Shown here in pieces: positions 30,219-51,439 of a stretch of 63,690 nucleotides of DNA. The stretch spans positions 496,001-559,690 of the forward strand of contig JBEWZL010000145.1 in assembly GCA_045837725.1 (NCBI GenBank). Direction: 5' to 3'. The notes below the pieces were generated by a model. The model was given only the letters and a program-made list of their open reading frames with translations. It searched no databases and was not told the origin of the DNA. A program made the translations under genes and the position numbers. Numbering within the stretch: the first letter of the stretch is position 1; each line of letters begins with the position of its first letter. This DNA comes from Vermamoeba vermiformis (taxonomy: Eukaryota).

Positions 30219-33157
30219 ATGGAAATGGAACAAACTTTTTGGTCAAAAGAGGACGATTCAGCACAGATGTTCCACGAGCTGGAGCGCTGGGTAGATGAAG
30301 AAGACTTGTCATCTTCCGCCGAAGCAATTGCCGTATCACCTAAAAACGATATTGACGTGAAAGAGAGCTCTGCGATTGATTCGGATGAGCAAATCGAATC
30401 TTATGTAAATTTACAAGACGTGGATCCCACTGTCCCTTTCTACGAATATACCCACAGTACTCCAGATGCAATTATACTCAATTGTGAAGTGTGCAAGCGA
30501 TTTTGTATTGGTAAGAGAAGGATACTGAATCGAAATTTAATTACTTTTGCAGATTTGATTTTAGTTGATTGAATTAATTCTTGATTGAATGTCTATCGAT
30601 CGCGAAAATAACAAATAACCAATATTATCTCATAGCTCAAGTACACCTACCCGACCTTGCATTGCGTCCAGGCCCAGGAGATAGGAGTTTCACTTTTCGA
30701 TGCGCTAAATGCAACGGAGGAAAACAATCTTTCAAACACAACGAAAAAACATGGTAAGGATAAAAAAATGATCGAGATCGATAGCCTACAAGGCTCGATA
30801 TTTTTAAGTAATTATTTTAAATATTTAAAAAGCGCGCGCAGCGAAAGAATGCAACGGTAACTTGTTGTCTTAGTTTCCCGCGTAAATGGTCATATCGCGG
30901 CTTTTATTTGACAGACTTCCATTTTAGGCTTGACATTGCACTTACGGCTCTATATAATTTGGAAATCAAGCACTCTAGAAGGTTTTTCCACGTAAAGAAA
31001 GAGGTCTGCAAGTTCGTAGATCAACACTGGAACGAGTTATGCCTTGGAAGGACGAGTATGTAAAAACTACGCCCGTCTTCATCACCCTCCCCCCTTCTAC
31101 TACAAAGGTTTTAATTGGTATTTTTTTTATTCAACTAGGAACTGCAACCTGGTGGGCAACTTTGAATGCGCAGATCACCACCCGAACCGATATTTTTGAG
31201 ACCGAGTCTCACGGTTCTGGCAAATGGGCGCTCCGTTACTCTAACCTCACTTGCACCGGCGGCGGCGAAACTAGGACTTCTTCAGTTTTGCTCAAACCCG
31301 AGAAACGCCAAAGATCGAGATCAAAATCCGACCTCGAAGATCGTGTGCAGAACTCCGAAGAGGAGAGCCTGAACGATAGCGAAGAAGACGATATGGTCGA
31401 CGACGAGTTCTCTCGTAAGGAGCGAATCATTGATAAGCGAATGTTCCAAGGCAGGCTTCAGTACTTGCTGCGCACCGAAGATGGCGATGAGATGTGGGAA
31501 GATGCTTCTACAAGCAAGACCGAGCTTATTCGTGAATACGAGGTAAGTCGAAGTTGTGTTTTATTACCAGCTAGTACCTAAAAAGCTCACTCTTGTCATT
31601 TCAGGAAGGGATCAAGCGAGCTGCCCGCAACATTGTGAAGAAAAACAGGCAGCGCCGTCAAAAGTCCTACATGTTCTTGTGGTGCCATCAATGCAAGCAG
31701 AAGCATGACGACGTTGTTTACTGCTCTCGATATTTTAAAGGCAGCTGCAGCAAGAAGTATTGCCTCGGCTGCATCCAGCGACACTACGGTGAAGACATCA
31801 ACGATGACAACAAAGACTCATGGATTTGCCTCTACTGTCGCAATATGTGCAGCTGTGCATTTTGCCGTCGTAGGCGCGGTGACGAGACAGCTCCTACAGA
31901 GTTCGGTGTCAGTGCTGCCCCGCGCAAGTCCCAAAAGCGCAAGCACCACGAAATTGACGAGATAAAGGTAAGAGGGTTTTAAGAATAGATCCTCGAAATA
32001 TCGGTTTCTGACAATTCTAATTTCAGGTAACCGCAAACCAAATCGAAACTATCCTTGCTAGAATTGATCATGGAGACACTGCCGAATATTTGGTGAAGCT
32101 CAAGGATGGCATGGGATCTTGTTGGACAAAAGAGAAAGAGGTGGCCAAAAGTGGTGCCCTACTCGAGCAATTCGATCAAGGATTGAAGATCAGTGTGCCT
32201 GGTTCGGTTATCAACTCTATTCAGTCTACCGGTTCGTCTCCTCAAAAGAGACGTCGCTTGAGCAGTCTCAGGTCCTCCTCTGAAGTTGAACGTCACGACG
32301 TTTCTCTCGAAGAGATAGTCTTACCTCCGAAGGATAAGATCGACATCCCCACGTGGCGTGATGTCTCGGACTACGACGCCTTACTACCAGATCTTGGTTT
32401 GGGTCTCGACGAAGAGAGTGTGGAGGACGATTCTGATGAAGTCTATGCCAACCGCCACGCAAAGTACGAAGAAGAGGAGCAAACGCGATACCGCGAATTC
32501 CTGCGTGCTCAACGGCTAATGAAGGCATCCAGCAAACATCGAAAGCAACACGGTGACACCAAAGTGACATTAAGTGATCTCTTGGCCAGTGGTCTAGTTG
32601 GTGAAGGTGAAGAACTGACATTCCGAGACCAAGTTGATGGCGATACTGCCAAGTTAACAGCGGCTGGCACTATCGAGTGGCGTGGTAGGACCTTCACTAG
32701 CTTGTCGACTTTAGCAAAAACCATGGCCCATGAATGCGGGTACGGCAACTCTGGAACTCTGTTTAACGGTTGGCTGTTCATCTACGCTCGCGGCAAGCCA
32801 ATGGAGCACTATCGTGATCAGTGCCGCAATCAACTGCTTGACGTTACATTTGTGGTAACTGGTGATTTGCCCAACGACGAGCTCGACACGAGCTTGGCTA
32901 GCTTAAAGTCCGAATCGAGTCTACCTCCTGCTGCACTTCAATCAAGCCAAGATATAGAGGATCTCGCTTCACACGACAATGCGGCCTTTTCCGTCACTGC
33001 TACATCGAGTGTTGCCCCTGCTCTTAATGCCTCGTACATCATTCACGATAATAGGTCGATTTTAAGCGACGACTCCTTCTCGAGGCTTGACGCTATAGAT
33101 AACTTCACACTCGAGACTTGGATTGAGGGAATGGACAAGGCTACAACCAACGTCTAA
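30219..33157 (+). CDS. Multidomain chromatin protein: PCL/ASH2L-like PHD-winged helix, chromo-like, zf-4CXXC, PEHE and RAMA domains
   Basis: GDRSFTFRCAKCNGG...TW/LDIALTALYNL..FVDQHWNEL; RIIDKRMFQGRLQYLL..MWE; CHQCKQ..C..KKYCLGC..WICLYCRNMCSCAFCRR; IPTWR..DSDEVYANRHAKYEEEE; TLSDLLASGL..GRTFTSLS..NGW. Confidence 0.8.
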
Positions 33158-33406
33158 CCGCGATCTGAATCCTAATGTACATAGGTTTTTTGTTTATAGA
33201 TATGTAAGATAATGGCGTTTTCCTTGCTTTTGGCTTATCAAAAGTAAGCTTGTACACTATTTTGTTTGATAGGTGATAAATAGACTGATACGAATCATTC
33301 GTCCTAAATTGCGCAAAAAAAATCCCCACAAATTTCACGCCCTACAAAGCCGCCGAGTAACTTAGCATTTATCCGTGCAGTAAAACTAAAGAACATTAAA
33401 GTTGAA

Positions 33407-34516
33407 ATGTCCACTCTCACAGCATCACTGCGCGACTTCGTAACGAAGGATAATTCTTTGGGTTTGTTGAAATGGTAATTAATAATAAGGCTTATAACGT
33501 TCTTTCGTACCTAACTAATTAAGGCCCTTGCTTGCTTTGTCTGGCCTTGGTCTCATTTCTGTCGCATCTGGAATACGGCGCGCATACAATTATTTGAGGG
33601 TGAAGGACTCTGGTCTCGACGCTTATGCTGCACTCAACACAACTCCTGAGCCATTTTATCTGAAGGAACTATTTGACGTGACTTTGGTAATTCAAAAATC
33701 TTAATCTAATTGAAAATTAAATTAATCATGATTATCGATAGAAAAAAACAAGCACACCAATGATGATAACAGGTGTTGTAGAGGGCAGATTTCTCGAATT
33801 TTTGGTCTTTTGGGGAAAGCCTAAAAAGATTCTTGAGATCGGGTGCTTTACAGGTTAGTAGAGCCAACAATTGAAGCTTTAGCAAATTATTCATTATTTT
33901 AAAAACAGGGTATAGCTCATTATGGATGGCGGAACAGCTTCCTGAAGATGGGAAGATAATTACTTTAGATTTGGATCCAAAAGTCACCGCCATCGCAAAA
34001 GAGCATTTCCTGAAGAGCCCCCACGGAGGAAAAATTGAGCACCGCTTAGGCGATGCGCGTCAAGCGTAAGTGATCCTAAACCATACTAAGCACTAATTGT
34101 TATGACAGAGTCACCTCTCTGGACGAGAAATTTGACCTGATCTTTATCGGTACGTAACGTTTCATATCTTTTGAGCTTGTTGCTGACTGGTTTTTCGTTA
34201 AAAGACGCTGATAAGGGAGGCTACGTTCATTACTATCAAATGATTATGTCTCGCGGCTTATTGGCTGAGAACGGCATCATAGTCGTTGATAATACCTTTT
34301 TTATGGGAGGCGCCGCTAATCCTATTCTCAATCGAGTTGGTTCCTTTAAAGAAATTAACGAGTTCAACAAGGTAAGAAAGGCCAGGACTTTATGGCCAAG
34401 GACTTTTGACTAACCTAGCCCATTAGCTTATCCGATCGGATCCTCGAGTTGTTAGTGTTCAATTAAGCATTCGTGATGGAGTGACACTAATTCGACACGC
34501 AAAAAAGACCGAATAA
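33407..34516 (+). CDS. Class I SAM-dependent O-methyltransferase (caffeoyl-CoA OMT / COMTD1-like)
   Basis: PKKILEIGCFT/GYSSLWMA..LPEDGKIITLD; FDLIFI/DADKGGY; IIVVDNT; RDGVTLI. Confidence 0.9.
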
Positions 34517-34769
34517 TTCATTGTTCTTGCTGCATTTCAATAAACAACACGACTCATTGTCATGTAGAGGCACTTTATTGCATTTACTTATTTGGCTTGT
34601 TTGCAAGGTAAATAAATATTCCAAGCCCATCTTAACAACCAGATCTAGTCGGGATTTTTTCGTTAAAATTAATAGAAAAAATATCTGGAATTGATTAATT
34701 GTTTACCCAATCTTTACTTACTATTTCCTCACGTAGACCGAGTTTTAAAAATTGTTTAATGCTGTTTTG

Positions 34770-37022
34770 ATGGATCAGCGTGTCAACAAAAGCCACGTTG
34801 CTGCAACATGTACGCGAAGTGTATCAGTAATAGGAAGCAACAATTGTCCGAAGGCTCTTTTCGACTATTGTCTGCGCGAGGGCAATCTGGCACAAAGCCC
34901 TCCGTTTGTTCCTGCCGACGAGCTTTACCTTGACACTCGAGCAATTCACTATAATCACCACGACGAACACTATTTAATCCACCTGATCAATACACCGGGT
35001 CACCCAGAGTTTATAGGCGAAGTGTCTGCAGCTCTTCGAATTACAGATGGCGCAATTGTTGTGGTTGATTGTACTATTGGAATAGCGCTGCACACGATTA
35101 ATCTAGTACGCCGAGCAGTCGAAGAGCATGTGCGAGTGGTTCTATTGTTCGACAAGGTGGAGTCCTTACTTACCTTGCCACCCGAAGAAGCTGCGTCTGT
35201 GTTGGACTTGTTTTTATGGAAACTCAATTCTAGAGTGCCCTTAGTACACAACGAATTTGGATTGAACAACGACAATGTACTTTTTGGATCATTGGAGCAT
35301 GGTTGGGTGGTATCTCCCGAGCAGTTGTTGCGAGCATTCAGTGCCTCATCCCCAGCACCGAGTAATTCAGCGGAATCGAAGGCACTTTTACGCAGTCTTT
35401 ACGAACTATTTGGACACGCAGGATCGAAAGATTTATCCGTCAATCGACCGTCAAATGTCATCACGGACGGTAATAACGAAGACAATGTTGAACGGTTCCA
35501 TCTTGCACTGCGCAAACTATGCGGTAATGAGGCTTTGTACGAGATGATAGTCAAACGCCTACCGAGTGCTACAGAGGCTCAGAAGTATCGCGCGGCTTAT
35601 TGGTACTCTGGGCATCGCAATGATAAAGTGCTAACAGCAATAACGGAATGCGATTCAAACGGCCCGACTATGATCTATATCAGCAAGATTGTGTGGGGCA
35701 AGATCAACTCATCATCCGAGCTGATTCCACTCGCAGTCGGAAGAATATTCTCCGGCTCAATCCGACCTAATCAGTCTTTGTATAAAATTCGCTCTGGCCA
35801 GATCGACGATCCTTCAGCAATTGTGATAGACAAGCTTTACAAATTTACCGACACAGTTGAAGAACTTGAAGAGTGTTTGAGCGGAAACGTTGTTTTGATT
35901 ACGGGCGTTGCAGAGCTCGTGGACAAAACGGCAACATTTTCTTCACTACCTACAGCAAGCGCATTTAATGCACAACACACCCGATACACAGCGGTTGTCG
36001 AGTACGAAGTGTCCAGCGCGTCACCAACTGACCCTGCAGCAGTGGGACTAAAGTTGCTGGTGAAGTGCGATATTGCAGTGGCAGTTAACTGGCGTGACGG
36101 GTACGGAAGCTGCATTTGTGCTGTTGGCCCGAAGCACGCAGAAGTACTTCTGAAGCGGTACAAAGCATTCGCCAAGGTCGATCCAGTTATAAATGGACCA
36201 TATTACAGATATAGAGAGAGTATAACAGCACCATCGTCAGTTTCGTGTCTGTCAAAGTCACCCAACAAACTTAACCGCGTTTGGGCTCGAGCGCGTCCAA
36301 TGGACTCAACCCTGAAGCAGATACTTTCAAGTCAGAACGTGCCATTCAATGACGCGCAAAAGAATATTGAAGTTTTGAATGACGAGTACTTGTTCATAGA
36401 AGAAAACAACGTGTCAGTGGTCGAGACTAACATGATAGTCATTGACGAGACCCTCATGAAGCGTTTTTCTCATCAAGGCGCTATCGATTGGCTCGACTCG
36501 CTTCGCATTGGTGGTCTGTTCACACTGAAAGGAGGAGTTCTATGCGAAGAACCATTGATTGGCGCTCAGTTCACGCTGGAGGATGCTGTTATAGCCGAAG
36601 ACACCCGAAGAAGGGGAGGCGGCCAGCTAATTCCAATGTTCAGGCGATCATTCCTTGCAGCGCAGCTAACAGCCAAACCAGTGCTGTTAGAGGCCATTCT
36701 CTTGACGGAGATCCACGTGCCTTTTATGAATGTGAATAGCGTATATAATGAGCTTCTGAGGAAAAGAGCTGTGGTCTTAATAGAAAGTGAACACCTCGAG
36801 CATAGCAATATGACTGTAATACGATGCTACGTCCCGGTCGTGGAAAGTCTTGAACTTCACGAGCCAGCAGTTTCAACGAGTTTTTTCAGCCACTGGGAAC
36901 AAGTACCCGGTGATCCGTTGGAAGAAGGAAGCTTCGCTAATTCAGTCACGCGAAGCATTAGAAAAATTAAGGCCTTGCGGGAGTCAATTCCAGAACTTGA
37001 TACTTATCTTGACAAGCTGTAA
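34770..37022 (+). CDS. Divergent intronless elongation factor 2 (eEF2)-like paralog with degenerate G-domain
   Basis: LINTPGHPEFIGEVSAALRITDGAIVVVD; LPSATEAQKYRA; GRIFSG; YRESI..SKSPNKLNR; LCEEP; RGGGQLIP; HWEQVPGDP; ends YLDKL as in eEF2. Confidence 0.9.
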   Translation: MDQRVNKSHVAATCTRSVSVIGSNNCPKALFDYCLREGNLAQSPPFVPADELYLDTRAIHYNHHDEHYLIHLINTPGHPEFIGEVSAALRITDGAIVVVDCTIGIALHTINLVRRAVEEHVRVVLLFDKVESLLTLPPEEAASVLDLFLWKLNSRVPLVHNEFGLNNDNVLFGSLEHGWVVSPEQLLRAFSASSPAPSNSAESKALLRSLYELFGHAGSKDLSVNRPSNVITDGNNEDNVERFHLALRKLCGNEALYEMIVKRLPSATEAQKYRAAYWYSGHRNDKVLTAITECDSNGPTMIYISKIVWGKINSSSELIPLAVGRIFSGSIRPNQSLYKIRSGQIDDPSAIVIDKLYKFTDTVEELEECLSGNVVLITGVAELVDKTATFSSLPTASAFNAQHTRYTAVVEYEVSSASPTDPAAVGLKLLVKCDIAVAVNWRDGYGSCICAVGPKHAEVLLKRYKAFAKVDPVINGPYYRYRESITAPSSVSCLSKSPNKLNRVWARARPMDSTLKQILSSQNVPFNDAQKNIEVLNDEYLFIEENNVSVVETNMIVIDETLMKRFSHQGAIDWLDSLRIGGLFTLKGGVLCEEPLIGAQFTLEDAVIAEDTRRRGGGQLIPMFRRSFLAAQLTAKPVLLEAILLTEIHVPFMNVNSVYNELLRKRAVVLIESEHLEHSNMTVIRCYVPVVESLELHEPAVSTSFFSHWEQVPGDPLEEGSFANSVTRSIRKIKALRESIPELDTYLDKL

Positions 37023-37061
37023 ATTCGGAATAAATTTCTGTTTTTATTGTTGCCGATATTT

Positions 37062-40000
37062 ATGGAAGATAAAGCACCATATTCGTTGCCTCTTCAATAC
37101 CGTATTGCTCTTATCGGGCCAAACGGTAAGCTCGTGATAATCAACCCTATTTGTTAACGCGCTTAGGTGTGGGCAAAAGTAGCATCTGCTCTCAATTCGT
37201 GCACAACACCTTCGATGAAAATTATGAAACTACAGATACGTTAGATGAATACACTATTTGGGTAAATATAACTATTAAAGATTTTTTGGAATTTTGAAAC
37301 GAAATCTGGACGACGGTGGCCACTCTAATTAATTCACCAATTCAAAGGCCAATAAATTGTATAATTATGATCAAATTTCTAACGTTAATTTTTTAGTTCC
37401 GCGTTAAAAATCAGAATTACCTGTTAGGTAAGTCGCGTGTCTGTCAAATAAATAATTATTTACTAATTTATAAATGTAGAGATCGAAGACCTAGCTGGAT
37501 CGAACGAGTTTCGTGTAAGTTCTGTGTTAGGACAACTGTTGAGATTTTTAATTTCAAATAATATCGTTTTAGCATCGCCCGGCTGCCGACGCCTTTATTC
37601 TCGTTTATTCTATCGATAATTCGAACAGTTTTGATATAATCAGAAGACAAACTGCCAAGATAACCAAAGTGGCGAGGAATGCGGTAATCATTATTTTTGT
37701 GACTCGCTTGTCACTTTCCGCTAACGTCGTTTACCTTAGAAATTGGTCATTTTAGTTGGAAATAAGGCTGATACTAATAATAGACAAGTGAAATTTGAAG
37801 TAGCATCACAATTTGCTCGAAATAATGGGCTTTCGTTGATAGAAGTCTCTGCGACTAGTACGTTGTTCGAACGCACCCTTTTCGCAATTATTAACGTAAT
37901 TGTTCTTAGGTCGCGAATCAGTACGCAATCTTTTCGAATTCATTTTGCATAAGCTTCAAAGTAAGAATTTTTTGTCCGCTAGGATTGGGATCTAACCGGG
38001 TATTTAGTGCACCTCATTAAAACGACAATAATTTCCCCTATTCTGGACGGTCAATTGGAAGGCAAGAGCGAAAAGAGCCAATTAATTGCCAAACAATTAA
38101 AGCAAGATCAGTTGCGAAGAGCAATGAGCGATCTGTCGTGGTCTTTGGATCGCTCAGATTTTAGTGACATTGCCTTTATATTCACGAAAGAAAACAAAAA
38201 GTAATTCTTCACACGTAGTAATATCTATTACTGACACTATTGCAGGTTATTCGCCCATCGCTGCATTTTGTATGCACGATCTGACTCGTTCAGAGAACTC
38301 TTAGCAACAGAATGGAGTCAGCCGGAAATAATCATCGACGATGTTAAGTGTGAAATATTCCAAGCCATTATGAAGTTTGTGTACAGGTAAATGTATTTTC
38401 TAATCGAGGTTTACAATTACTGACCAGATCCTGATCTGCAGCGCTCAAGCGGACGCTGGTGATTTCAACGTGTCAGTATCTACGGCAAAAGAGATTATAG
38501 AAGTCGCCGAGAAGTTTAAGATCTACGATTTGAGTCATTTAGCCCGCCGCTATGTCATTACCAAAGCTGCAGTTGAGCGTACGTCGCCGGATCTATTTAA
38601 GTTTTTCCTAACACCAACGTGTTTAATTGTTTATATTAGGCATTACGTCTCTTCTCGAGAAACTATTTGAAGGACTTCGCAAGATTTCAGACTTTTTGGA
38701 TAAGGCCACAAATGACTACGTGTCGGTCTTAGCTTTCCTTCAAGAAAATATTCTGGAGGCACTCGACACGGCAGTTACGATCTGTTTCTCGTTTTTTAAG
38801 CAGTACAAGTTCTTCCCTGCTTTCCTCAAGACGGAGTTACTAGAGCACATATTCCAACATTTCCGAGGCTGGGCCACGTAAGTCTGGAAAGAATATTACA
38901 GCACTCATAGCTAATATCACGGTATTAGCACATTATCATCTGTTTTGACCAAGTTGTGGCCTTATTTTGAGAAGTTAACGAAGCCCGAGAGACTGGAACT
39001 CTGTGATCTCATTCGCGAGAGACTTTTGAAGATAACGCACGCGTTCCCTGATCTGCGCTCAAGGTAAATCCGTTGTTAATGACGCAAGCAAAGCTCACGT
39101 GCTGTGCAGATTGAAGGACAAGATGGAGCAAGTGTTCGAGTCCCGCCGTTTGCCAATGAACAAAAAGATTAAATCAGAACTGACTGAGTTCGTTGAGCTG
39201 TTGGGCGTTGTGCACGGCAAGCTAACAGACTACGACGGGTCACAAATGAAGCACAAAGTCAAGCACTTTTTGCATTCGTGGGACAAGACTGGCCGTAGCA
39301 TCACAAAGCTGCTCAACAAATATGACACAACAGAGCCATCGGAGATCGAGGGCGTGAAGAAGAGAATATTAGAAATGCTAGCACTAATGACGTCGAACGA
39401 AGTTCTCGGAATCGCACGCAACGTTGTGATGGAGTACCACGATGAGATTAAGAACGTTATGGACGTGTTTTTGAAACAAACACAGCTCCGTGCATCCCTG
39501 CAAGAGGTTCTCAATTTCTTCGTTGGAAAGTCTGGTGATGATACCAACGTGGAGAATATTGAAACATTGCTCAACGAGATGACATTTGACAACTTCAAGC
39601 CTCAGCGCATGAACGGTAATTTGATGGACGTGTTCGATCAAGACAAGTTCAGTGACTTGCAACTTCAATGGCAAGAGACCGCGGATGCTCAAATGATCAA
39701 CGCTCACAAAGTAATTCTTTCGAACTTTTCAGCAATCTTCAGAAGGTACGTCGAAAGCAGTTAGCCTACTTTCGAAGCAGAGTTTTAATTTTTTCACGCA
39801 GCATGTTTGTTGGCGGTTTCAAAGAAAGCAAAGAAAAAGTACTGCCAATATCTGACGTAGATTATCTTGCCATGCGTAGTTTAGTGCAATTCCTCTACAA
39901 CGGCGGTGATATCACTCCGCTGTTGTATCAAAAACACAACGCGAATGACACTACAAACCTCATACTTCAAGTGCTCATTGCAGCCAATCAGTATCAAATC

Positions 40001-42145
40001 GAACCGTTGAAAATGCAGTGCGAAGAGTACATCAAGTTGCAACTGTCGAAGATGGAAGTCGACGACATTTTGTCCCTGTATTCGATCGCTGACACGTACC
40101 AAGCCGAGATATTGAAGAAGGCGTGTCTCTCTTACACCGACAGACTTTTGTTCACAACGACGCCCTCGGCAACTTTCTTGAGCTTGCCTGCTGACGTGCA
40201 AAAGGCAGTTCTGGCCAGCAAGGCCCAATTTGAACGCGAGTTAGTGCATGCCAAAGTGTTCGTGGTCGGTGAGCGCGGTGTTGGCAAGACATCACTCATC
40301 AACAATTTCTTGGCCAATTTTCCCGCGGAAGAGTCATCACGTACGTTTGCACCATTATTTGTAACATATTTACTAACGCGCATTGTAGCGCCTAATCGCC
40401 GGTTTGTGGAGGCTCACGAGGGGTCTGCAGCCTACCTCGAAGTAGAGGAGATTTCATGCGAAACAGTTACTTCACAGTGGCTAGAAAACAACGTTTACGA
40501 CGCAAAAGGCGCGGTGGGTTTCCTGTTTGTGTTTGATTTGACCAGCAGAAAGTCATTGAAGAACGTGGTTGAACTCAAAAAGCGCGTGTTTGCACATTAC
40601 GAGCGACATCATATTATCGACACACCTGGTGGCAGTGTCGAAACACACAGTGTGCCGCTGTTTGGAGACGCCATTGGACTGCTCGTCGGCACCAAATGCG
40701 ACGTGGAAGATAAGGACGAGAAGTGGTTCGACTTTTCTCCTCCCTATTCGGATCCGCTTGGTTTAGGACCACCAACAAAGCTTGTTATTGAGCATGATGA
40801 CAATGAGAAGGAGTCAGAGTTGCGTCGATTTGGAATGCCCGAGCTGGTACACATTCAACATCAGTTGGATATTGGCTTCATCGAAGTTTCCACGGTCGTA
40901 GGCACCAATGTTCCATCGTGTTTCAAACGCGTAAGTTACTCGAACAAGTCATATTAAGCGCGCTTAACACTTGCATGTAGATGGCGCTCGCGTTTAAACA
41001 CATGACCAAGTCGTTCAATCCGACGCAAGATACCTTCGACTCGTTCTTGAACACGAAAGACAGTCAGACTATTTTGATATTGGGCAGTGAATCGATAGGC
41101 AAGTCGACTATTATAAAACAAGCGATGGTCGTTGCAGCTGGCAGCAAGAAGCCGAATTACAACAGATTTGAAGTGGTGCAGTCCATGAAGCGACAAGTAT
41201 ACGAGTACATTGAAGAGCTCGTGCACACTATTCGAACGAAGACTGAGTTACCCTCCCCGCCTGTGCACGACGTACGTACTCAATAGTATTCTATTCGAAG
41301 TTAGTCTAACGGTTGCTAGTTAATTGATTCCAACCCGACGTATTGGGGCAATGAAATTGTGGTTCTTTGGAACGACGCAACGGTGCAACACGTGCACGAG
41401 AATAGAAATCTGTATGGCATTTACCACTGCCCCTCAGCGTAAGAACTTCATTCGAAAATAGTCTACAACATTGTATTAACCTGCTTTTCAGTGCCTTGCA
41501 AAAGATCGATTTGATTCACAAATGGGACTATGTACCTACAGTGGACGACTTTATCTCCGCACACGTGTATAATTCTAAGAAGTCGTTTGAATCTCAAGTG
41601 CTCTATTTGAACAAGATATTCCGATTCGTCGATCTTCCTGGAAATTCGCTCGACCCAGTTCTCTTTGGAGACGCACGAAACTACTTCAATCAACTCGGCA
41701 TTGTAGTTTTTATGGTGTCACTTGCAGATTATGTGGAGCGCTGCGATGGTTATCCTTCGAAATTACACCGATCGCTTGCAATGTTAATCGAGCTGGCCAT
41801 GCAGGTACCACAAACAACGAGAAAGCTGTTCATCTATTTCAACAAGGTAGGCTAAAGAGACGATCCTCACATTTTAACATCGATATTTTGAAACAGCGTG
41901 ATGAGTTCGAACGATTGCTGCCAATAGTGAAGTTGAGCACCCTCCCTCAGTTCGATGGAATGGACGAGCGCTCACCTCAGGAACAACTTGAGTTCATTGT
42001 GGACCTCTTTTATACCGCCGCCAAGCAGCACGCAAAGTGTGACGTTTCTTACTTGTACGGATCTCTCCTCAGAACGGTCGATGCCACTCGTCTGTTAATT
42101 ACACTGACAACGTTCTTCGATGAGCCCGAGTCAGGCCATGCTTAG
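37062..42145 (+). CDS. Ras-like - BTB - helical - BTB - Ras-like - Galpha-like fusion protein
   Basis: IALIGPNG/VGKSS, LVGNKAD, EVSA; FSDIAF..AHRCIL; FSDLQL..AHKVIL..FRSMF..GFKES; VVGERGVGKTSL, LVGTKCD, EVST; LILGSESIGKSTIIKQ, YVPTVDD, FMVSLADY, FNKRD. The junctions checked splice in frame. Confidence 0.78.
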
Positions 42146-42173: not shown

Positions 42174-44715
42174 TTATTCTAAAACTAACAAGATACACGA
42201 AGCAATAGTTATTGCGACAAACCAAAATGCAGCAGGTGAAGCAGTGCTGGTAACAGAGCCAGGGTTTGTAGAGCCAGCGGGTGTTTCAGGATTAGAAATG
42301 GCAAGTTGATTGCCGTCCCAAGTTCCTATTGTTTCGCCGATATTGAACGACCACGTGTTTCCATTGTGATTAAGCTGCGGTTCATTTCCCGTGCAGTCAG
42401 GATCCAACAACACAACAAATGTGACCGAAGTGAGATTCGTGTTGAGTTTGAACTGTCCGTGTGCTTGATTAGGCAAGTTCACTGGAACAGTGAACTGATC
42501 TGTTTGAGTGAAGGTGTAATCCGATGACGTGTACAGCATCTTGATGCACAACGATGCATTGCCGTCACTTGACTTGACAGTCGATGGCGAGACAACAGTG
42601 AAGTTGATGAATGCGTGCAGATTCCATTCGAAGCTTCGAGAAGAGTTGGCGTCGAATTGGTCGAAGATCACAAACTGATTGCTAGCCCGGAAGTAAACAA
42701 TGGAGCGAATGGCGCGTGTTAACTGAAGAGCTGGGTTTGTTACGCCATTGTTGTACGCTACCAAAGCATCTCCGGTGACGAAGTCAAACTCGTTTGAGTG
42801 GCCGAATTGAGTGATGTTGCCTGTTGCCGACAGCTGACCGATCATTTGCCCTACACCTCCGTCCATTGTCACACCACCACTCTTAGCTCGCGTCGTCCTC
42901 GTCCAGCCATTGTGATGTGCAGATCCATAGTAATCGTAGTAGCCACTGCTGATGAGCAACGCTTTGCCTTTGTGTGCAAATGTGAAGCACAACTGATCCG
43001 CATAGTTGTGATTGTATGAGCCGAATCTGCTTGAGCGGAAGAACAGCGACGTGCGTTGATTGTCGGAAAGAGAGCTGTGGAATGACGCCCAGCCAATCGG
43101 TGCCAAGTGAATAGCATTGGGATAGTTGCCTGGCAGCGGTTGAGGCGAGTTGAACTCGCGACTCCAAATAACATCGTTGTAGCGCGAGTCGACAACACCT
43201 TTGTAAGTGAGCGCGTTGCAGTACCAGTTATAAAGATCTTGATATTCCATGGTCGGAGATTCATCAAGAACTGGACTAACAACGTTGAGGCAGACCATAG
43301 GTTGATATGGTCGCATATCTGCCTGCCCACTGTCACCAAAGCCAAGACCGCCTGATGCCGCGCCTGGCGGTGAGAAGTAGATGAATTGCAAGGGCCACTC
43401 GCGCACCCACTGCTTCTGATACAGACTCACGCCTGTACTCCACTTCAAGAAGTTGAAGCGAGACGGTTCACTTGTAACGTCAAAGTAGTTGTAGCCCATG
43501 CCATTGCCGAAGCCTCCTTCGTGCTCACCCCAGGTGCTGTACATGTTTAAGAACATAGGAATGCTTGCTGCCCATGCGTCCGCTTCAGGAATCAGTCCAA
43601 GCACTGCCGCACTAGCACTGGCAATGAAGCCAAGAGTGTTGGCACCATGAGAGTCGTACGGTGCCGTCATTAATTGAGTGAGGAAACCTCCGTTCTGGTA
43701 CATTTGTTCGGTTCTGTTCTGGATGTTTGCCAAGATTCTATTGCGATCGGTTACGTTGAATTCGTTGTAGATCAAATCAAGGACTTGAGCCAGCGACAAT
43801 AAGATGGCTCTGTTTGCTTGATCTTGTGAGGCATAGCTTGTTGCTCCTGCTGGGTCCGCGTCCAAAAGTGCATATGTTCTTCGCTTGAGCTCATTGACGT
43901 AGATTGTGTTTGAAGAGTTGTACCAAAGAGCGTAGATGCAGTTCGAGATGTAAAGGACTTGCGGGCTCGTGAAGTCATTCATAACGCTCGATAGGTATGC
44001 GGCCCATTCAGGAGAGCCAAAAGGAAAGTCACTGGCAGTCTTGTTCGGTGCAACAGGAAGTGTAGCTCCGAGCTTTCTGTCCAGGTACGGAATTACCTGG
44101 GTGTTCACTACCTTGACGAATGATTGACCAGAGGATGAAGCCAAGAAAGCTGTCTTCGCATCACCCTTCATCAACAATCGTGGACGAGCAGAGTTCTTCG
44201 TCGTCGTGATAACGTCAGTTGGCACGACAAATGTTGTGGCATCAGATGTGACGAAGAACGAGCGCAGATCACTGTCAGTCGACGTGCCCTTGACAGAGTC
44301 CACCAAAGTCACTCTCCAAAAGTAGTGCGTGTCCACGGGTAAGGCAAGCGGCACGTTGTAAAAGCAGTTCGTTGTGGTGAAACTCCAGTCAGGTTGACGA
44401 TCGGCTGCTGAGTTGGCCCAGATCGACAATTTGAACGATTTGCCACTGCCAAGGAATCCTTGAGCGGTCCACCAAAATGAGGGCGGATTAGATTTAACGA
44501 TGGCACCATCTGGCGGAACGATCCGAACGTAAACCAAGTCATGATTCGTTAACAAATCTAACAATTGACATTAGCCCGGGTAAATAATTATCAATGAATA
44601 GAGGTGCAATCTTTTGAAAAGATTCGTTAATTATTTGTATAAATTAAATACCTCCGTGAACATAATTCGATGCGATGGCCAGAATAATCGCAATAAAACA
44701 CAACGGCAGTCTCAT
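42174..44715 (-). CDS. Secreted, GPI-type DUF4962 + heparinase II/III-like polysaccharide lyase (PL15 oligo-alginate lyase-like)
   Basis: Signal exon MRLPLCFIAIILAIASNYVHG, one intron, then NPPSFWW, PRLL, PYDSHG, FGDS, IGWASFHS, FRSSRFGSYNHNYADQ..F, SGYYDYYGSAHH..W, EWNLHA; S/T linker and hydrophobic C-terminal tail. Confidence 0.85.
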
Positions 44716-46308: not shown

Positions 46309-48411
46309 ATGATGAATCGAAGATTTTTCGTTGCTTTCTTACTTGCCATTATTGCCGCATCTGCTATCGCCAGAGATATCGGTCGTGTGAAAGTCATTCA
46401 CGCTTACCCTGCAGGACAAGTTACGGTCGATATCTACATTCTTCAGAACGGTTTTGTCGCCAAGTCATTAATGAGCGTGCCTTACAAGGTAAGTAAATTT
46501 GTCCGATCTGATCTTCAAAAAGGAGCATTTTCTAATATTTTCTAGGCTGCCAGCGATTGGTTCTACTTACCTTACGGAGACTACACTGTGGAAATTAGAG
46601 CTGCTGGCCAGACTGACGCAATCTTAACCACCCCCGTTACAGTGGAGAGTTATTCTACTGTTATTTTCGCTCAGGACAACAATGGCAATGGCCAATTGAC
46701 TCTTTCGGCCTTTAGCGACAACATTGACTCCATTGCCGATGGAAAATCTCACGTCACCATTGCTCATCGCGCCGTTGATGTTTCTAACGTCGACGTTGGT
46801 GCTGGTGACTCGACGAACAACCTTGCTGTAGACTTGGCTTATGGCAGTCAAGCTGGCCCTGTTGAAGTCGATGCTGGTACCGTCAGTGCTGGCGTTCGAT
46901 TAACTGGTGATACTGGTGCCCCCGTTATCACTCTGTCTGCTACTTTGGAAGCTCGCAAACACTATCTCGTCGTTGCCGTTGGTGATTCTAGTGGTAATCC
47001 CGCACTGACTCTTCTCGCCTTCGAATTGGCCGACTACTCCATTAGCGCTCGTTTAGCTTTTGTTCACGGTGTTCCTGCAGCGGATCTCCCCGTCAGTGTT
47101 AACGCTAATGATCAACTTGCTCTCTTCCGAAACGTCAAGTAAGTAATCGATTATTTCCGAGCAATATTGTGTCAATACTTATAATTAAATTGCAGCTACA
47201 AGAACATCACCGACTACAAGAACATTCCCGTCGGTACCCACACCATCAACGTCGTGGCTGGAGGCAATGTTGCTCTCTCCGTTACTGCTTTCTTCAATGG
47301 ATTTACTGAATCGACGTTGTACGCTACATTTAATGGTGAAGGCCCAGCTGGCATTCTCCTTCTTGACAACAATGAAGCTCCTGCTAGCGGCAAAACTCAC
47401 TTGAGAGTCTTGCACGGTGCTGGCGCTGCCCCCTCAGTGGACGTTCTCTCTGGCACCACTGCCGTCATTTCCAACATCACCTACGGCTTCGCTTCTGCAT
47501 ATTTGGCTCTTGATGCTGGTTCTTATTCACTTTCCGTTAATGCTGCCGGCTCGTCCACATCCGTATTCCAAGTAAGCTTGACCCTCGCTGCCGGACCCAT
47601 CATCACCGTTCTCGCGACCGGAGATCCCGCTGCAAGTGGTGCCACAGCCTTCACTCTTGTTGTCGTCACCGATGCTACCTATGGCTCTGGCGGCAACTTG
47701 CGTGCTGTCCATGCTGTCGCTGGTGGTCCTAACGTCAACATCAAGGCCAACGGCAATCAAATCTTGTCCAACGTACCTTATCAGGCCGTATCAGGCTATT
47801 TGCCTATTGATGCTGGCTTGTACGCAGTTAGCGTTCACGCTGCTTCGGATGATGCCGAAATTTTCCGCAACCCTATCCGAGTTGATGCTGCTGGATATTT
47901 TACTGCTATCGCTGGTGGCGTGCAGGATCTTGCTCTCTTCCAATTACGAGACGACAACACTCGCCCCGCTGCTACCACGGCTCATCTCCGCGTTGTACAC
48001 GCCTCTGCTGGTTCGCCTGAAGTCAACATCGAATTCGGTGGAAGTATTGTTGGTTCTCTCGTCTACACTGAAGCCTTTGGTTACGTTCCTGTTCCCGCTG
48101 GTTCTTACGTCGCTCGCGTTCTCGCCAAGTCTAACAACGCTCAAGTTTTCAATGGTTCGTTGTCCTTGGAAGCCGACACCGTTGTCTCCGTGTTTGCCGT
48201 TGGTATTGTTGGTGACAGCACTAATGGCTTCACTGTTGTTCCTGCCATCGACTTCGATTACCGAACTCCTGCTGCCGAGCCGACAGCTGCTGCTCCTTCG
48301 TCGACCCCTACCGGAACTCCTACCAGAACTCCCACTCCCACTCGCACTTCGTCAGCAAGTTACGTTGGTGTCTCTAGTATTGCCATGTTGGCCTTGGCTG
48401 CTTTGTTTTAA
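46309..48411 (+). CDS. Secreted, GPI-type surface protein made of tandem DUF4397 (AlgF-like) repeats
   Basis: Signal peptide; repeats VKVIHAYPAGQVTVDI, LRVLHGAGAAPSVDV, LRAVHAVAGGPNVNI, LRVVHASAGSPEVNI, each followed by Y...S.Y..(L/V).AG.Y; PT-rich linker and hydrophobic tail; two introns. Confidence 0.85.
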
Positions 48412-48785: not shown

Positions 48786-49910
48786 ATGTCCTTCGCGAAA
48801 AAATATCTGGAATATTGCCAAGCGACACAACGACGCTGGATGCTTTACGGTATGGAATTTAACAATTCAATATTCAACATTAATACTGTAATCCATTTAT
48901 TATTAAATTGTGACTGAATATTTCGGCTAGATTACATCACGTTGCCCTTGCTCGAGGACGTCACAACGCTAATTGCCCAAAGCTCGGTCGTCAACGATAT
49001 TCTCTTTTGTCAGCGTAAGTCAGACAAATCCGCTTAACCTGTTTTGACTAACTCAATTTGTGGACAGCTTCGCCAATGCCGACTGTACACAGCAATTCTT
49101 TAGCCGTTGCTTTGGCGACGAACAGTTCTCTCACCGCGCTTGAAATCCGAGGTAATTACGCGCTATCCGTTTGCAAACAATAACTGTCATTTAGATGTCC
49201 TACATAATGTTGATTGCAATATGCAGCCGGTATTTGACGTGTTGGCAACGAAAAGTCAACTCCGTGCCTTACATCGTAAGTTAATATACATTTAAATCCT
49301 TGTTCATCATTTCTTTTATTAGTTTCGAGCATCGATAACTCGCTCACGGGAGAATTATTTCCGTTGGTAGTGCGAATATGTCGCAATTGTAGCACGCTAA
49401 CCGAATTAACATTGGAAGATAACTTCACCGAGCATCAGTATCTTCAGTTATTTGAGGCTTTGAATGGACAGGATAGACTCACAAGATTGAGAATCGGTAT
49501 GCTCACATTTTCGGCCCTATTAAACACAGCGACTAACGGCAGTTAAGGCGATATTGATTCGTGGTCGCAAAACACTCTTTCAGTCTTTGCGCGGTTTCTC
49601 AACGAGAATAAGAACATCACAAGCTACCATGCACACGTTGGTAAGCATATTATATATTAACAAAAAAATTCCTGTATTTCGCTTGCTGGCCACTGTCGTG
49701 CAACATACTGTGGTGTTCGTGAAGCGAGTTGTTGCTCGTCTTGGCTGGTTTGCTCAGAGGTTCATCGCTGGATGTACTAAATAATATCTTTCATCACTAA
49801 TAAATATGTTGTAGCACGTGACACCGTTGAATTCCTTGCAACACTGACAGATGTGAGCGTTATCGGTATGTTCGAGTTTCGTTAAAAGTAAATTTTAACG
49901 TTTGATGTAG
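48786..49910 (+). CDS. RI-like leucine-rich-repeat exons that splice in frame into the downstream F-box ORF
   Basis: LAVALATNSSLTALEI, LATKSQLRALHL, CRNCSTLTELTL, LNGQDRLTRLRI, FLNENKNITS; all introns are phase 1. Confidence 0.7.
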
Positions 49911-49996
49911 GATATACCTCCAATCAGAATGTTGACAGTAGCATTGTTGCTGTAGCTCATTTTGATAGCCGTACACCATACACCCATGAGCCAAAC

Positions 49997-51439
49997 ATGA
50001 CAGAGCTATTTTTGGACATACTACCGCTAGAGATAAGCAAAAAGATTCTCTATTCGCTCAATATTGGACCTTTGATGTCACTATTCCGAACAAGCAAAAG
50101 GTCTTTAGAGTTCAGTCAATCCTATGACTTTTGGCACACCTATTACTTAAGTCACTTTGATTGTATTCCTGAAGATCTTCTGGAGTTCATTTGCATCAAG
50201 CATGGAGATTTGCTGCTTAACAAGAATTCCATTAATGAGTTATTCCCAACAAATATCTGGCTATTAACATTGCAAGCAATGACAGTAGTGTATCAAGTTA
50301 AACCTGCAGATTTACCACAAGACAGAAACCCACTCATTCAGCTTGTCTCCAAGTCATTTCCACAGCTCAAGAGTCAAACCAGTTCTTATGGATCCAGCTT
50401 TGATGGCTTTACATGGCTTACCTCTGTGTGTGGTGCATATGAAATCTACTGGACAGTGCACAAGCTTGGACTACAATATCAACCTGAATTTAATCAGTAC
50501 AGTGCTATTTTGCTTCGAAAGCACGAGTATGTGGATGGCTTCCCTCACCGTGTTGAGCAGTTTGAGCGCTTAGAATATATCTTAGACTGGACTGTAGCAA
50601 ATGACCCCAAGCAATTTGTCAATCAAGTCAAACATCTTATTGAAATGTTTCTATTACTTCGTTACAACTCTGAATTTGAAATCTGTAGAGAAATTATTCC
50701 CAAGTCAAAACTCAAGGAACATTTCATTACAATAGATGAAGCTACTCGTAATATCAATGTAAAGATTGAAGAATATGCAGCTATGGTGGAAACCAATCAA
50801 TTTGATTTGCAGCTCATAGAAAGAAGTATTATTAGATTGAAACAATTGCCCATTCATCAATTGGATTATGCAATGTGTAAACAAATACTGCCCAAAAGAA
50901 CAGAAGTTGATGCATTCAAAAATTACATGCAGCATCATAGGGATTGGGAATTCTACAGAAAGGATTGGAAAGATTTTGTCCATGTTCAACTTTTCTCTGG
51001 CAAAACAAAACACAGGCAAAGCAAGAATATAGCCAAGGTTTTGGTTTTGAGGTGGATACGAGTCATGCTCAACTACTTGATGTTACCCTTGCTTCAACTC
51101 TTTTGGCCTCGTGATATGACAGATCCTGACTTCAATGCCTACAGCTACACTCTGAATTATAATTTCACTCAAGATTATCAACAATTCTATTCATCTCATG
51201 TTTTGGCCAACAAAGTCACTATTTACCATAGTTTCCCTTGGTATTGGCCAGTGCTTGTAACAGGAATGAGTAGGCTAATTCTAGGCCATGTTCTGGAGAT
51301 AATCACTGCTACCTTGAATAACAAACCTCTAGGACCAAGCATTGAGCAATTAATGAAAGCTTTGCAGACTACTGGTTTCTATCCAAAGAGTGCATTAACC
51401 ATGATCCAAGCTTTTTTCAAAAATGAATTTCCTAGCTAG
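49997..51439 (+). CDS. F-box protein (long uninterrupted ORF, CpG-poor)
   Basis: LDILPLEISKKILYSL..LMSLFRTSK...FW F-box consensus at the start of the ORF. Confidence 0.7.
   Translation: MTELFLDILPLEISKKILYSLNIGPLMSLFRTSKRSLEFSQSYDFWHTYYLSHFDCIPEDLLEFICIKHGDLLLNKNSINELFPTNIWLLTLQAMTVVYQVKPADLPQDRNPLIQLVSKSFPQLKSQTSSYGSSFDGFTWLTSVCGAYEIYWTVHKLGLQYQPEFNQYSAILLRKHEYVDGFPHRVEQFERLEYILDWTVANDPKQFVNQVKHLIEMFLLLRYNSEFEICREIIPKSKLKEHFITIDEATRNINVKIEEYAAMVETNQFDLQLIERSIIRLKQLPIHQLDYAMCKQILPKRTEVDAFKNYMQHHRDWEFYRKDWKDFVHVQLFSGKTKHRQSKNIAKVLVLRWIRVMLNYLMLPLLQLFWPRDMTDPDFNAYSYTLNYNFTQDYQQFYSSHVLANKVTIYHSFPWYWPVLVTGMSRLILGHVLEIITATLNNKPLGPSIEQLMKALQTTGFYPKSALTMIQAFFKNEFPS

Follow-up and report, generated by a model that had tools for sequence, protein, structure and literature searches.

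Eukaryotic elongation factor 2 (eEF2) ranks among the most conserved eukaryotic proteins, and to our knowledge its accepted offshoots are just Snu114 and EFL1 (Ria1), both of which are still GTPases. Both keep working GTP-binding motifs; Snu114 carries an N-terminal domain, and EFL1 is about 1100 amino acids long with a large insertion. In translational GTPases (trGTPases), nucleotide binding and its coupling to a change of conformation depend on the Gly and Ser/Thr of Walker A, the Thr of switch I, the Asp of G3 and the Asn and Asp of G4, and Ski7 is an example of a trGTPase paralogue kept as an adaptor after loss of GTP hydrolysis. eEF2 contacts the ribosome through its five-domain body, the PGH segment of switch II, the two tip loops of domain IV and the C-terminal helix. 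In the part of its text that treats this family, Atkinson 2015 (PMC4342817) counts eEF2, Ria1 and Snu114 alone as cytoplasmic eukaryotic EF2-family members, and the same part mentions several strongly diverged forms of eEF2 in Naegleria. Here we describe a gene found in a stretch of 63,690 nucleotides from Vermamoeba vermiformis (assembly GCA_045837725.1, contig JBEWZL010000145.1, positions 496,001 to 559,690 of the forward strand), referred to below as the window. At 34770..37022 on its plus strand, the open frame and database matches reveal an intronless eEF2-derived paralogue of 750 codons plus TAA, which we call P0001. Its sequence suggests an eEF2-family pseudo-GTPase, of a kind that we did not find described in the open-access literature searched.

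P0001 resembles canonical eEF2 in having five domains, part of the G'' insert, the switch II PGH, the SPNKxNR and D..xRGxGQ loops and the C-terminal YLDKL, but it is 28-33% identical to it and approximately 90-100 residues shorter. As a putative product of eEF2 duplication with a non-translocase role it would be comparable to Snu114 and EFL1/Ria1. Unlike Snu114, however, it has no N-terminal extension (14 residues precede strand 1), no EFTUD2 Pfam match and no G1 of the GHxHHGKT type, a motif that we read from the Snu114 sequence P0240; and unlike EFL1 it has 750 residues and matches the EFL1 chain 5anb_K with 114 bits, the best stretch covering residues 58-154 only. The archaeal aEF-2p is likewise a second EF-2 copy lacking the diphthamide His, and in the section of PMC6143161 devoted to it this protein is judged unable to translocate; according to that section aEF-2p keeps G1-G5 and loses the domain IV loops, whereas P0001 shows the opposite pattern and is eukaryotic. 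P0001 may also be likened to Ski7 and to aSelBL (the latter as presented in that portion of PMC6143161), which are trGTPase paralogues without GTP hydrolysis that act as adaptors or binders, but these belong to the EF1/SelB side and have other domain sets.

The nucleotide-binding and domain IV motifs of P0001

The frame of P0001 opens with the ATG at 34770, closes with the TAA at 37020-37022 and contains no internal stop in its 750 codons, in agreement with the initial annotation, which had read an intact and intronless frame of about this length. It ranks second in length among the stop-free frames of the window, and the chance that a 750-codon frame stays open at the base composition of the window is approximately 4e-20. 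The predicted start agrees with that of relatives which are 52% identical (MDQRVNKS in P0001, MERVNKS in the relatives), and the GC content by codon position is similar to that of the host coding DNA of the window. The frame has no introns, whereas the neighbouring genes are dense in introns, which are short.

A search of PDB sequences with P0001 gave eEF2 as the best match with 278 bits (E 1e-81), followed by Snu114 (184), archaeal EF2 (180) and EFL1 (114), and the match to eEF2 was colinear over residues 62-750. In line with the initial claim that the C-terminus fits eEF2 better than EFL1 or Snu114, the C-terminal YLDKL (...IPELDTYLDKL) at 37005..37019 on the plus strand is of the eEF2 type. 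In Pfam, GTP_EFTU matched residues 64-188 (E 9e-15), corresponding to profile positions 65-180 of 188, so that the G1/G2 part was left unmatched; EFG_C was also found, and EFG_IV and domain 2 (D2) matched weakly. An AlphaFold2 model built on a 64-row alignment showed the five-domain fold with a mean predicted local distance difference test (pLDDT) score of 81 and a predicted template-modelling score (pTM) of 0.80, and its low confidence was confined to residues 1-8, 194-200 and 221-235. When this model was compared with the PDB by Foldseek, eEF2 chains came out on top (E 9e-59). Over the whole chain, the template-modelling (TM) scores were 0.72-0.83 on the compact Snu114 and on GMPPCP-bound aEF2, and 0.48-0.59 on ribosome-bound eEF2; we give the domain arrangement of the model no weight, as it is no evidence for a conformational state. 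A protein atlas returned eEF2, Ria1, EFL1 and Snu114 clusters with equal scores of 0.94-0.95. At the level of sequence, the assignment of P0001 as a paralogue in the eEF2 subfamily, neither Snu114 nor EFL1, is supported.

Alignments to canonical eEF2 confirmed all four motif readings of the initial annotation (G1, G3, G4 and the diphthamide loop). The degenerate P-loop (G1) of P0001 reads GSNNCPKA at residues 22-29 (34833..34856, plus strand, as are all motifs given here) where canonical eEF2 has AHVDHGKST; the Lys is kept, the second Gly is replaced by Pro and the Ser/Thr by Ala. The canonical switch I or effector loop (..DEQERGITIKST..) is wholly deleted, including RGITIK, and with it goes the region targeted by eEF2 kinase with its phospho-site. 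The deletion site lies in FVPADELYLDTRAIH (residues 46-60, 34905..34949), where the chain reads FVPADELYLDTR with the next strand following directly. G3, at the start of switch II, is NTPGH (residues 74-78, 34989..35003) as against DSPGH, with its Asp, the Mg ligand, changed to Asn and its His kept, and the G4 remnant is DKVE (residues 128-131, 35151..35162) as against NKMD (NKxD), whose Asn and Asp read guanine. In domain IV, one tip loop is SKSPNKLNR (residues 495-503, 36252..36278), differing from the canonical SKSPNKHNR by His to Leu, and the diphthamide loop is DTRRRGGGQLIP (residues 611-622, 36600..36635), which aligned to the canonical DAIHRGGGQIIP. Here Arg614 (codon AGA, 36609-36611) occupies the position of the eEF2 His that is modified to diphthamide, so the His is absent, as had been noticed at the outset; apart from this His to Arg change the loop DTRRRGGGQ(LIP) holds the rest of the eEF2 type HxDxxHRGxGQ. 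P0001 thus lacks the G1, the G2 Thr, the G3 DxxG, the G4 NKxD and the diphthamide His of a functional translocase.

The losses were concentrated in the G core and the G' insert. Relative to a canonical fungal eEF2 (P0028), and with domain limits that follow the crystal structure of yeast eEF2 with a shift of two residues, 42 of the 220 positions of the G core and 41 of the 127 positions of the G' insert were absent from P0001, while domains II to V were missing just 1-8 positions each. The switch I deletion, the loss of about a third of the G' insert and the start of the GTP_EFTU match at profile position 65 had been missed by the initial annotation.

Conservation and phylogenetic position of the family

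Relatives of P0001 were collected by a word-indexed search of 5.8 billion proteins and a profile search of 1.84 billion representatives. The closest, P0002, is a protein of 749 amino acids encoded on a 3419-nt contig and is 97-98% identical to P0001. Ten further proteins (P0003 and P0122-P0130) form a second lineage with 51-53% identity over 100% of the query; nine of these are 750-760 amino acids long, the tenth (P0126) being a 537-residue fragment, and one member has its 750-residue product on a contig of 2428 nt, which leaves no room for introns. These proteins carry the same G1, G3, G4 and Arg changes as P0001. In the profile search just three representatives of the family, namely P0002 with 1368 bits, P0131 (a C-terminal half) with 475 bits and P0132 (an N-terminal part) with 349 bits, preceded the ordinary eEF2s, which started at 320 bits and fell from there. 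P0131 and P0132 represent a third lineage, having NTPGH, DNVE and ..LRRGAGQ, whose gene is found in two open reading frames (ORFs): P0132 leaves the frame past approximately residue 258, P0131 starts at profile position 384, and each reports a longest contig of 7585 nt, so that the two probably lie on one contig. Common to all lineages are GxxxC[PS]K[AT] at G1 (GSHDCSKT and GEHNCSKT in the sister lineages), the switch I deletion, NTPGH (identical in 3/3 lineages), D[KN][VI]E at G4 (DKIE and DNVE in the other two) and Arg at the His position; FVPAD is invariant across the family. A metagenome scan with the family alignment yielded eight loci, all of which were ordinary GTPases, 25-39% identical over query residues 70-372 or less.

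Conservation between the two full-length lineages was patterned by domain. The C-terminal segment (68% identity), the G core (62%) and domain IV (58%) agreed best, domains II, III and V less well (45-49%) and G' least (34%). As many as 20 G-core positions are common to both full-length lineages and unlike the 80% canonical consensus, and this together with the high identity argues that the 'dead' G domain is newly constrained rather than drifting. Between P0001 and contigs of a close strain, six of the ten listed differences are synonymous, where the fraction of synonymous sites is 0.235 (binomial p 0.015). Selection, suggested initially from the intactness of the frame, is therefore backed by this excess and by a 52% identical lineage of the same length with the same changes; judged from these comparisons, P0001 is selectively maintained, intact and conserved.

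For phylogenetic analysis, rows were hand-picked from 278 proteins, and the trees contain eEF2 and Snu114 but no EFL1 sequence. With FastTree on 72 rows, the P0001 family formed a 100% clade on a long stem inside eukaryotic eEF2, among degenerate eEF2-like proteins. A quick IQ-TREE search under LG+C20+F+G4 on 33 rows likewise placed the family with cellular eEF2s, on a stem of 1.81 substitutions per site and in a seven-row group with degenerate paralogues of Naegleria, Cunninghamella and three dictyostelids (Shimodaira-Hasegawa-like approximate likelihood ratio test, SH-aLRT, 95), apart from the Fadolivirus-like clade, from a Snu114-like pair (100) and from N-terminally extended eEF2-like rows. 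When the other degenerate rows were left out (26 rows, same method), the stem lengthened to 2.71 and the family joined a weak group (SH-aLRT 82) with two protist-like rows and the clade holding the Fadolivirus-like sequences; the placement thus shifts with taxon sampling, and support for the position of the family ranged over 81-95. In approximately unbiased (AU) tests under LG+G4 with fast constrained searches, joining the family to five Fadolivirus-like rows was rejected (log-likelihood difference 52, p 0.029), joining it to the Snu114-like rows was borderline (44, p 0.050) and joining it to the extended eEF2-like rows P0136 and P0219 was not rejected (13.6, p 0.33). P0136 and P0219 are eEF2-like and not EFL1, whereas P0240 is Snu114 (1316 bits to hSnu114) and forms a separate 100% clade with P0244. 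As regards the phylogenetic check proposed with the initial annotation, the family falls in the eEF2 group and apart from Snu114 in all three trees, a result limited by the borderline Snu114 test and the lack of EFL1 in the trees. We conclude that the P0001 family probably belongs to the eEF2 subfamily and not to Snu114, with an unstable sister group.

We also aligned 190 eEF2-like proteins from both searches and observed damaged G motifs in many of them, most of the named ones keeping NKxD. Degenerate eEF2 paralogues were found in Dictyostelium discoideum (KAM9958618), D. purpureum (XP_003291740), Tieghemostelium (KYR02430), Naegleria gruberi (XP_002679015), Pelomyxa (schiedti) (KAH3744087), Cunninghamella (CAO3634839), Cladochytrium (KAI8807393), Dactylellina (EPS35566) and Lecanicillium (KAJ3499833), and also in Bolivina (our identifiers for the degenerate copies are P0047, P0145, P0217, P0216, P0169, P0180, P0165, P0146, P0276 and P0255); they are annotated just as 'hypothetical protein', 'unnamed protein product', 'predicted protein' or 'elongation factor 2'. 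Five of them, from D. discoideum, Tieghemostelium, Naegleria, Cunninghamella and Bolivina, have Arg at the diphthamide position, and two further ones have Lys. This recurrent replacement of His by a long basic residue would fit a domain IV tip that still works against nucleic acid. The deletions of the P0001 family (switch I, the G' segment, the KIWxFGP loop and a domain V loop) were not found in the other degenerate paralogues. Two ascomycete copies branch with ascomycete eEF2, which indicates that at least some degenerate copies arose independently. A shared origin of the P0001 family and the other degenerate paralogues was considered and not accepted, because the indels differ and the grouping could be due to long-branch attraction. 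In the open-access full texts searched, no eEF2 paralogue was described that is both GTPase-dead and Arg-bearing; the per-genome trGTPase tables of Atkinson 2015 may include some.

As a separate observation, the eEF2 homologues P0010, P0011, P0016, P0021, P0134 and P0139 have an intein-like insertion that separates ..DHG from ..HNST within the P-loop and carries the Pfam domains Hint and homing endonuclease.

Possible functions of P0001

We propose that P0001 is a selected, eEF2-derived pseudo-GTPase which acts as a nucleotide-independent mimic of eEF2 and parks, protects or gates ribosomes, a proposal to which we give about an even chance of being right. Since the elements named at the outset for nucleotide binding and its coupling are all altered or deleted, a GTP-driven cycle and catalytic translocation are very unlikely, and since the kept parts are the ribosome contacts of eEF2, a nucleotide-independent mimic is favoured. 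According to this proposal P0001 would dock in the ribosomal factor site and the A site without nucleotide; Arg614, which is not convertible to diphthamide, would provide the positive charge that diphthamide gives eEF2; and the protein would occupy or gate idle, stored or faulty ribosomes without driving translocation. That P0001 binds ribosomes and no nucleotide, and what it does in the cell, are what we infer from the motifs kept and lost. The PDB titles among the Foldseek matches include eEF2 on SERBP1-bound and on 'hibernating' 80S ribosomes, showing that a parked state of eEF2 exists. The P0001 family would thus have dropped the nucleotide switch and the diphthamide site and kept the ribosome-facing tip together with a newly fixed G-core surface. 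If it does bind ribosomes, it would amount to a 'GTP-free, diphthamide-free' eEF2 encoded in nature, with which the contributions of the domain IV tip and of the diphthamide charge could be probed separately from catalysis. It would then also be a candidate for a factor that stores ribosomes in dormant stages of protists; counterparts in the model organisms Dictyostelium and Naegleria make the question genetically testable. A broader idea, which we regard as rather doubtful, is that the Arg-bearing degenerate copies of Vermamoeba, Naegleria, the dictyostelids, Cunninghamella and others are one ancient, patchily retained, GTP-independent 'parking' eEF2, with Arg in place of diphthamide, which fills the A site and the GTPase centre on stored or suspect ribosomes, for instance in cysts and spores. 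If this were true, a dedicated hibernation or surveillance factor would form a fourth branch of the eEF2 family beside eEF2, Snu114 and EFL1.

A number of points weigh against the proposal of a selected, ribosome-binding mimic. P0001 retains the Lys of the P-loop and the His of switch II, and GxxxxSKT is present in two of the three lineages, so some nucleotide binding is possible; and so well conserved a G core could just as readily reflect a new partner outside the ribosome. The split of the third-lineage gene could be due to a frameshift, an intron or an assembly error, but it could also mean decay in that lineage. The substitution test had a small sample, namely the ten listed differences from a table with 28 further rows over the entire 10 kb, and the presence of a canonical eEF2 beside P0001 in the genome is presumed. 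Expression cuts both ways. Contigs of the set X8 come from a close strain with another organism label, differ from the window by a few bases per hundred, and their RNA nature is guessed. The neighbouring genes have GT..AG introns of 43-83 nt, which are removed in X8 at 17 joints, none of the 15 listed joints being inside the P0001 ORF, and X8 therefore behaves as cDNA. X8 covers 35586-35885, 36324-36592 and other parts of the P0001 gene at a depth of 1-5, as compared with 1-4.5 in the downstream spliced genes and 17-28 in the upstream gene, which points to transcription of P0001 at a low level in the close strain. However, the coverage is patchy, dropping to a depth of 0 in the flanking spacer and along approximately the first 570 nt of the frame, and transcripts of an intronless gene are indistinguishable from DNA traces, so that X8 is suggestive and no proof. 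The RNA-seq runs X21-X23, which bear the species label of the window, gave no reads on the gene and 5-23 reads on the whole 10 kb; 46 of 50 reads are 95-99% alike and most run into unlike sequence (window positions 31000-41000). The label of these runs probably covers a strain or species other than that of the assembly, and they say little on the expression of P0001, for or against.

How far the conserved parts of P0001 speak for the ribosome is best judged against a non-ribosomal neofunctionalisation similar to that of Snu114, in which the EF2 body would serve as a rigid scaffold or pseudo-GTPase for a new partner and the domain IV loops would be a structural inheritance. This we consider a serious contender, if an unlikely one. 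It would account for a G core that is among the best-conserved parts (62%) and has 20 family-specific fixed residues, and for a stem branch of 1.8-2.7 substitutions per site, a length typical of a change of function; the better superposition of the AlphaFold2 model on Snu114 and GMPPCP-bound aEF2 than on ribosome-bound eEF2 could be added, but the domain arrangement of such a model is no evidence of state. What mainly speaks for the ribosome instead is that SPNKxNR, D..RRG.GQLIP and YLDKL are nearly letter-perfect in P0001, while the Snu114-like P0240 and P0244 have changed these same loops to AETPNKRNK and APEPLHRGGGQ and lack YLDKL. The state of the diphthamide loop bears also on a role as decoy or sink, in which P0001 would bind agents directed at eEF2 (ADP-ribosylating toxins from prey bacteria, eEF2 kinase or chaperones specific to eEF2) and escape inactivation. 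P0001 lacks both the His target and the switch I region with its phospho-site while it keeps the toxin-facing loop around the His, and Arg recurs in five further degenerate copies of eEF2 from bacterivorous protists and fungi; but the low transcript depth suits a stoichiometric decoy poorly, and we find a decoy distinctly improbable. The initial annotation had offered a toxin-insensitive factor, and this holds as far as the loss of the His target goes but not as absolute insensitivity: in the in vitro work described in one part of PMC4265445, human eEF2 H715R was still a weak substrate, slowly ADP-ribosylated by an excess of a cholix toxin fragment, which counts against the decoy too.

Two further explanations concern where the gene came from and whether it is a gene at all. 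Origin from a giant virus, as an endogenised viral eEF2, would explain the lack of introns and leaves function aside. The best word-search matches outside the family are a Fadolivirus eEF2 (32%) and intein-bearing eEF2s, the 26-row tree puts the family in the weak group with the Fadolivirus-like clade (SH-aLRT 82), and other intronless ORFs with bacterial-type domains lie nearby; yet with the degenerate paralogues included the family falls in the cellular eEF2 clade, its joining to five Fadolivirus-like rows is the arrangement rejected by the AU test, at a cost of 52 log-likelihood units, a scan of viral contigs with P0003 gave eight pattern matches and no relative, and the composition is that of host coding DNA. 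We hold a viral origin to be very improbable. Finally, a decaying pseudogene or young retrocopy that is still open by chance might be suspected from the lost catalytic motifs, the low transcript depth and the split third-lineage copy, but it is strongly disfavoured, to the point of being extremely unlikely, by the minute probability of an open frame of this length, by 52% identical orthologues having the same length and motifs, by the excess of synonymous differences and by the conservation patterned by domain. With regard to the retrocopy origin that had been suggested initially, no poly(A) tract and no flanking direct repeat (target-site duplication) were seen by eye at the ends of P0001, so that this suggestion gained no support; the intronless state is common to the 52% identical lineage, which means that any retroposition would be ancient and its traces erased, and in this form a retrocopy origin is possible.

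Genomic setting

The setting of P0001 is eukaryotic nuclear DNA with multi-exon genes, among them VPS13, a TKL-type kinase, a FYVE/RhoGEF/DEP gene, a Zn2Cys6 gene, a G-alpha gene and a BTB-Ras gene, and the window gave no Rfam match and no tRNA. Upstream, a spacer of approximately 250 nt (34517..34769), read from the sequence and from spliced contigs of the upstream gene, separates the end of the preceding spliced gene from the ATG of P0001. Downstream, a 39-nt spacer (37023..37061) with AATAAA at 37029-37034 leads to the next ATG at 37062, which we read from the sequence as the putative start of the following gene. From 37062 onward on the plus strand there is a small-GTPase-like first exon (..IALIGPNG), then a short intron and a GKS-type P-loop. 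The spacing of the genes is very tight, this small-GTPase-like exon lying 39 nt past the stop of the eEF2-like frame, and X8 splice joints are found further downstream.

Several other frames of the window deserve mention. A long intronless ORF at 42177-44570 on the minus strand, with an open frame of 798 codons, combines DUF4962 with a heparinase II/III C-terminal domain, and another at 46546-48408 on the plus strand has repeated DUF4397; these two intronless ORFs have domains typical of bacteria and are possible horizontal acquisitions. At 49892-51436 on the plus strand an open frame of 515 codons has a low GC content of 0.376 and no Pfam match. The ORF at 32021-33154 on the plus strand joins PEHE and RAMA (restriction-enzyme adenine-methylase-associated) domains in one frame, and an X8 contig spans the whole of it.

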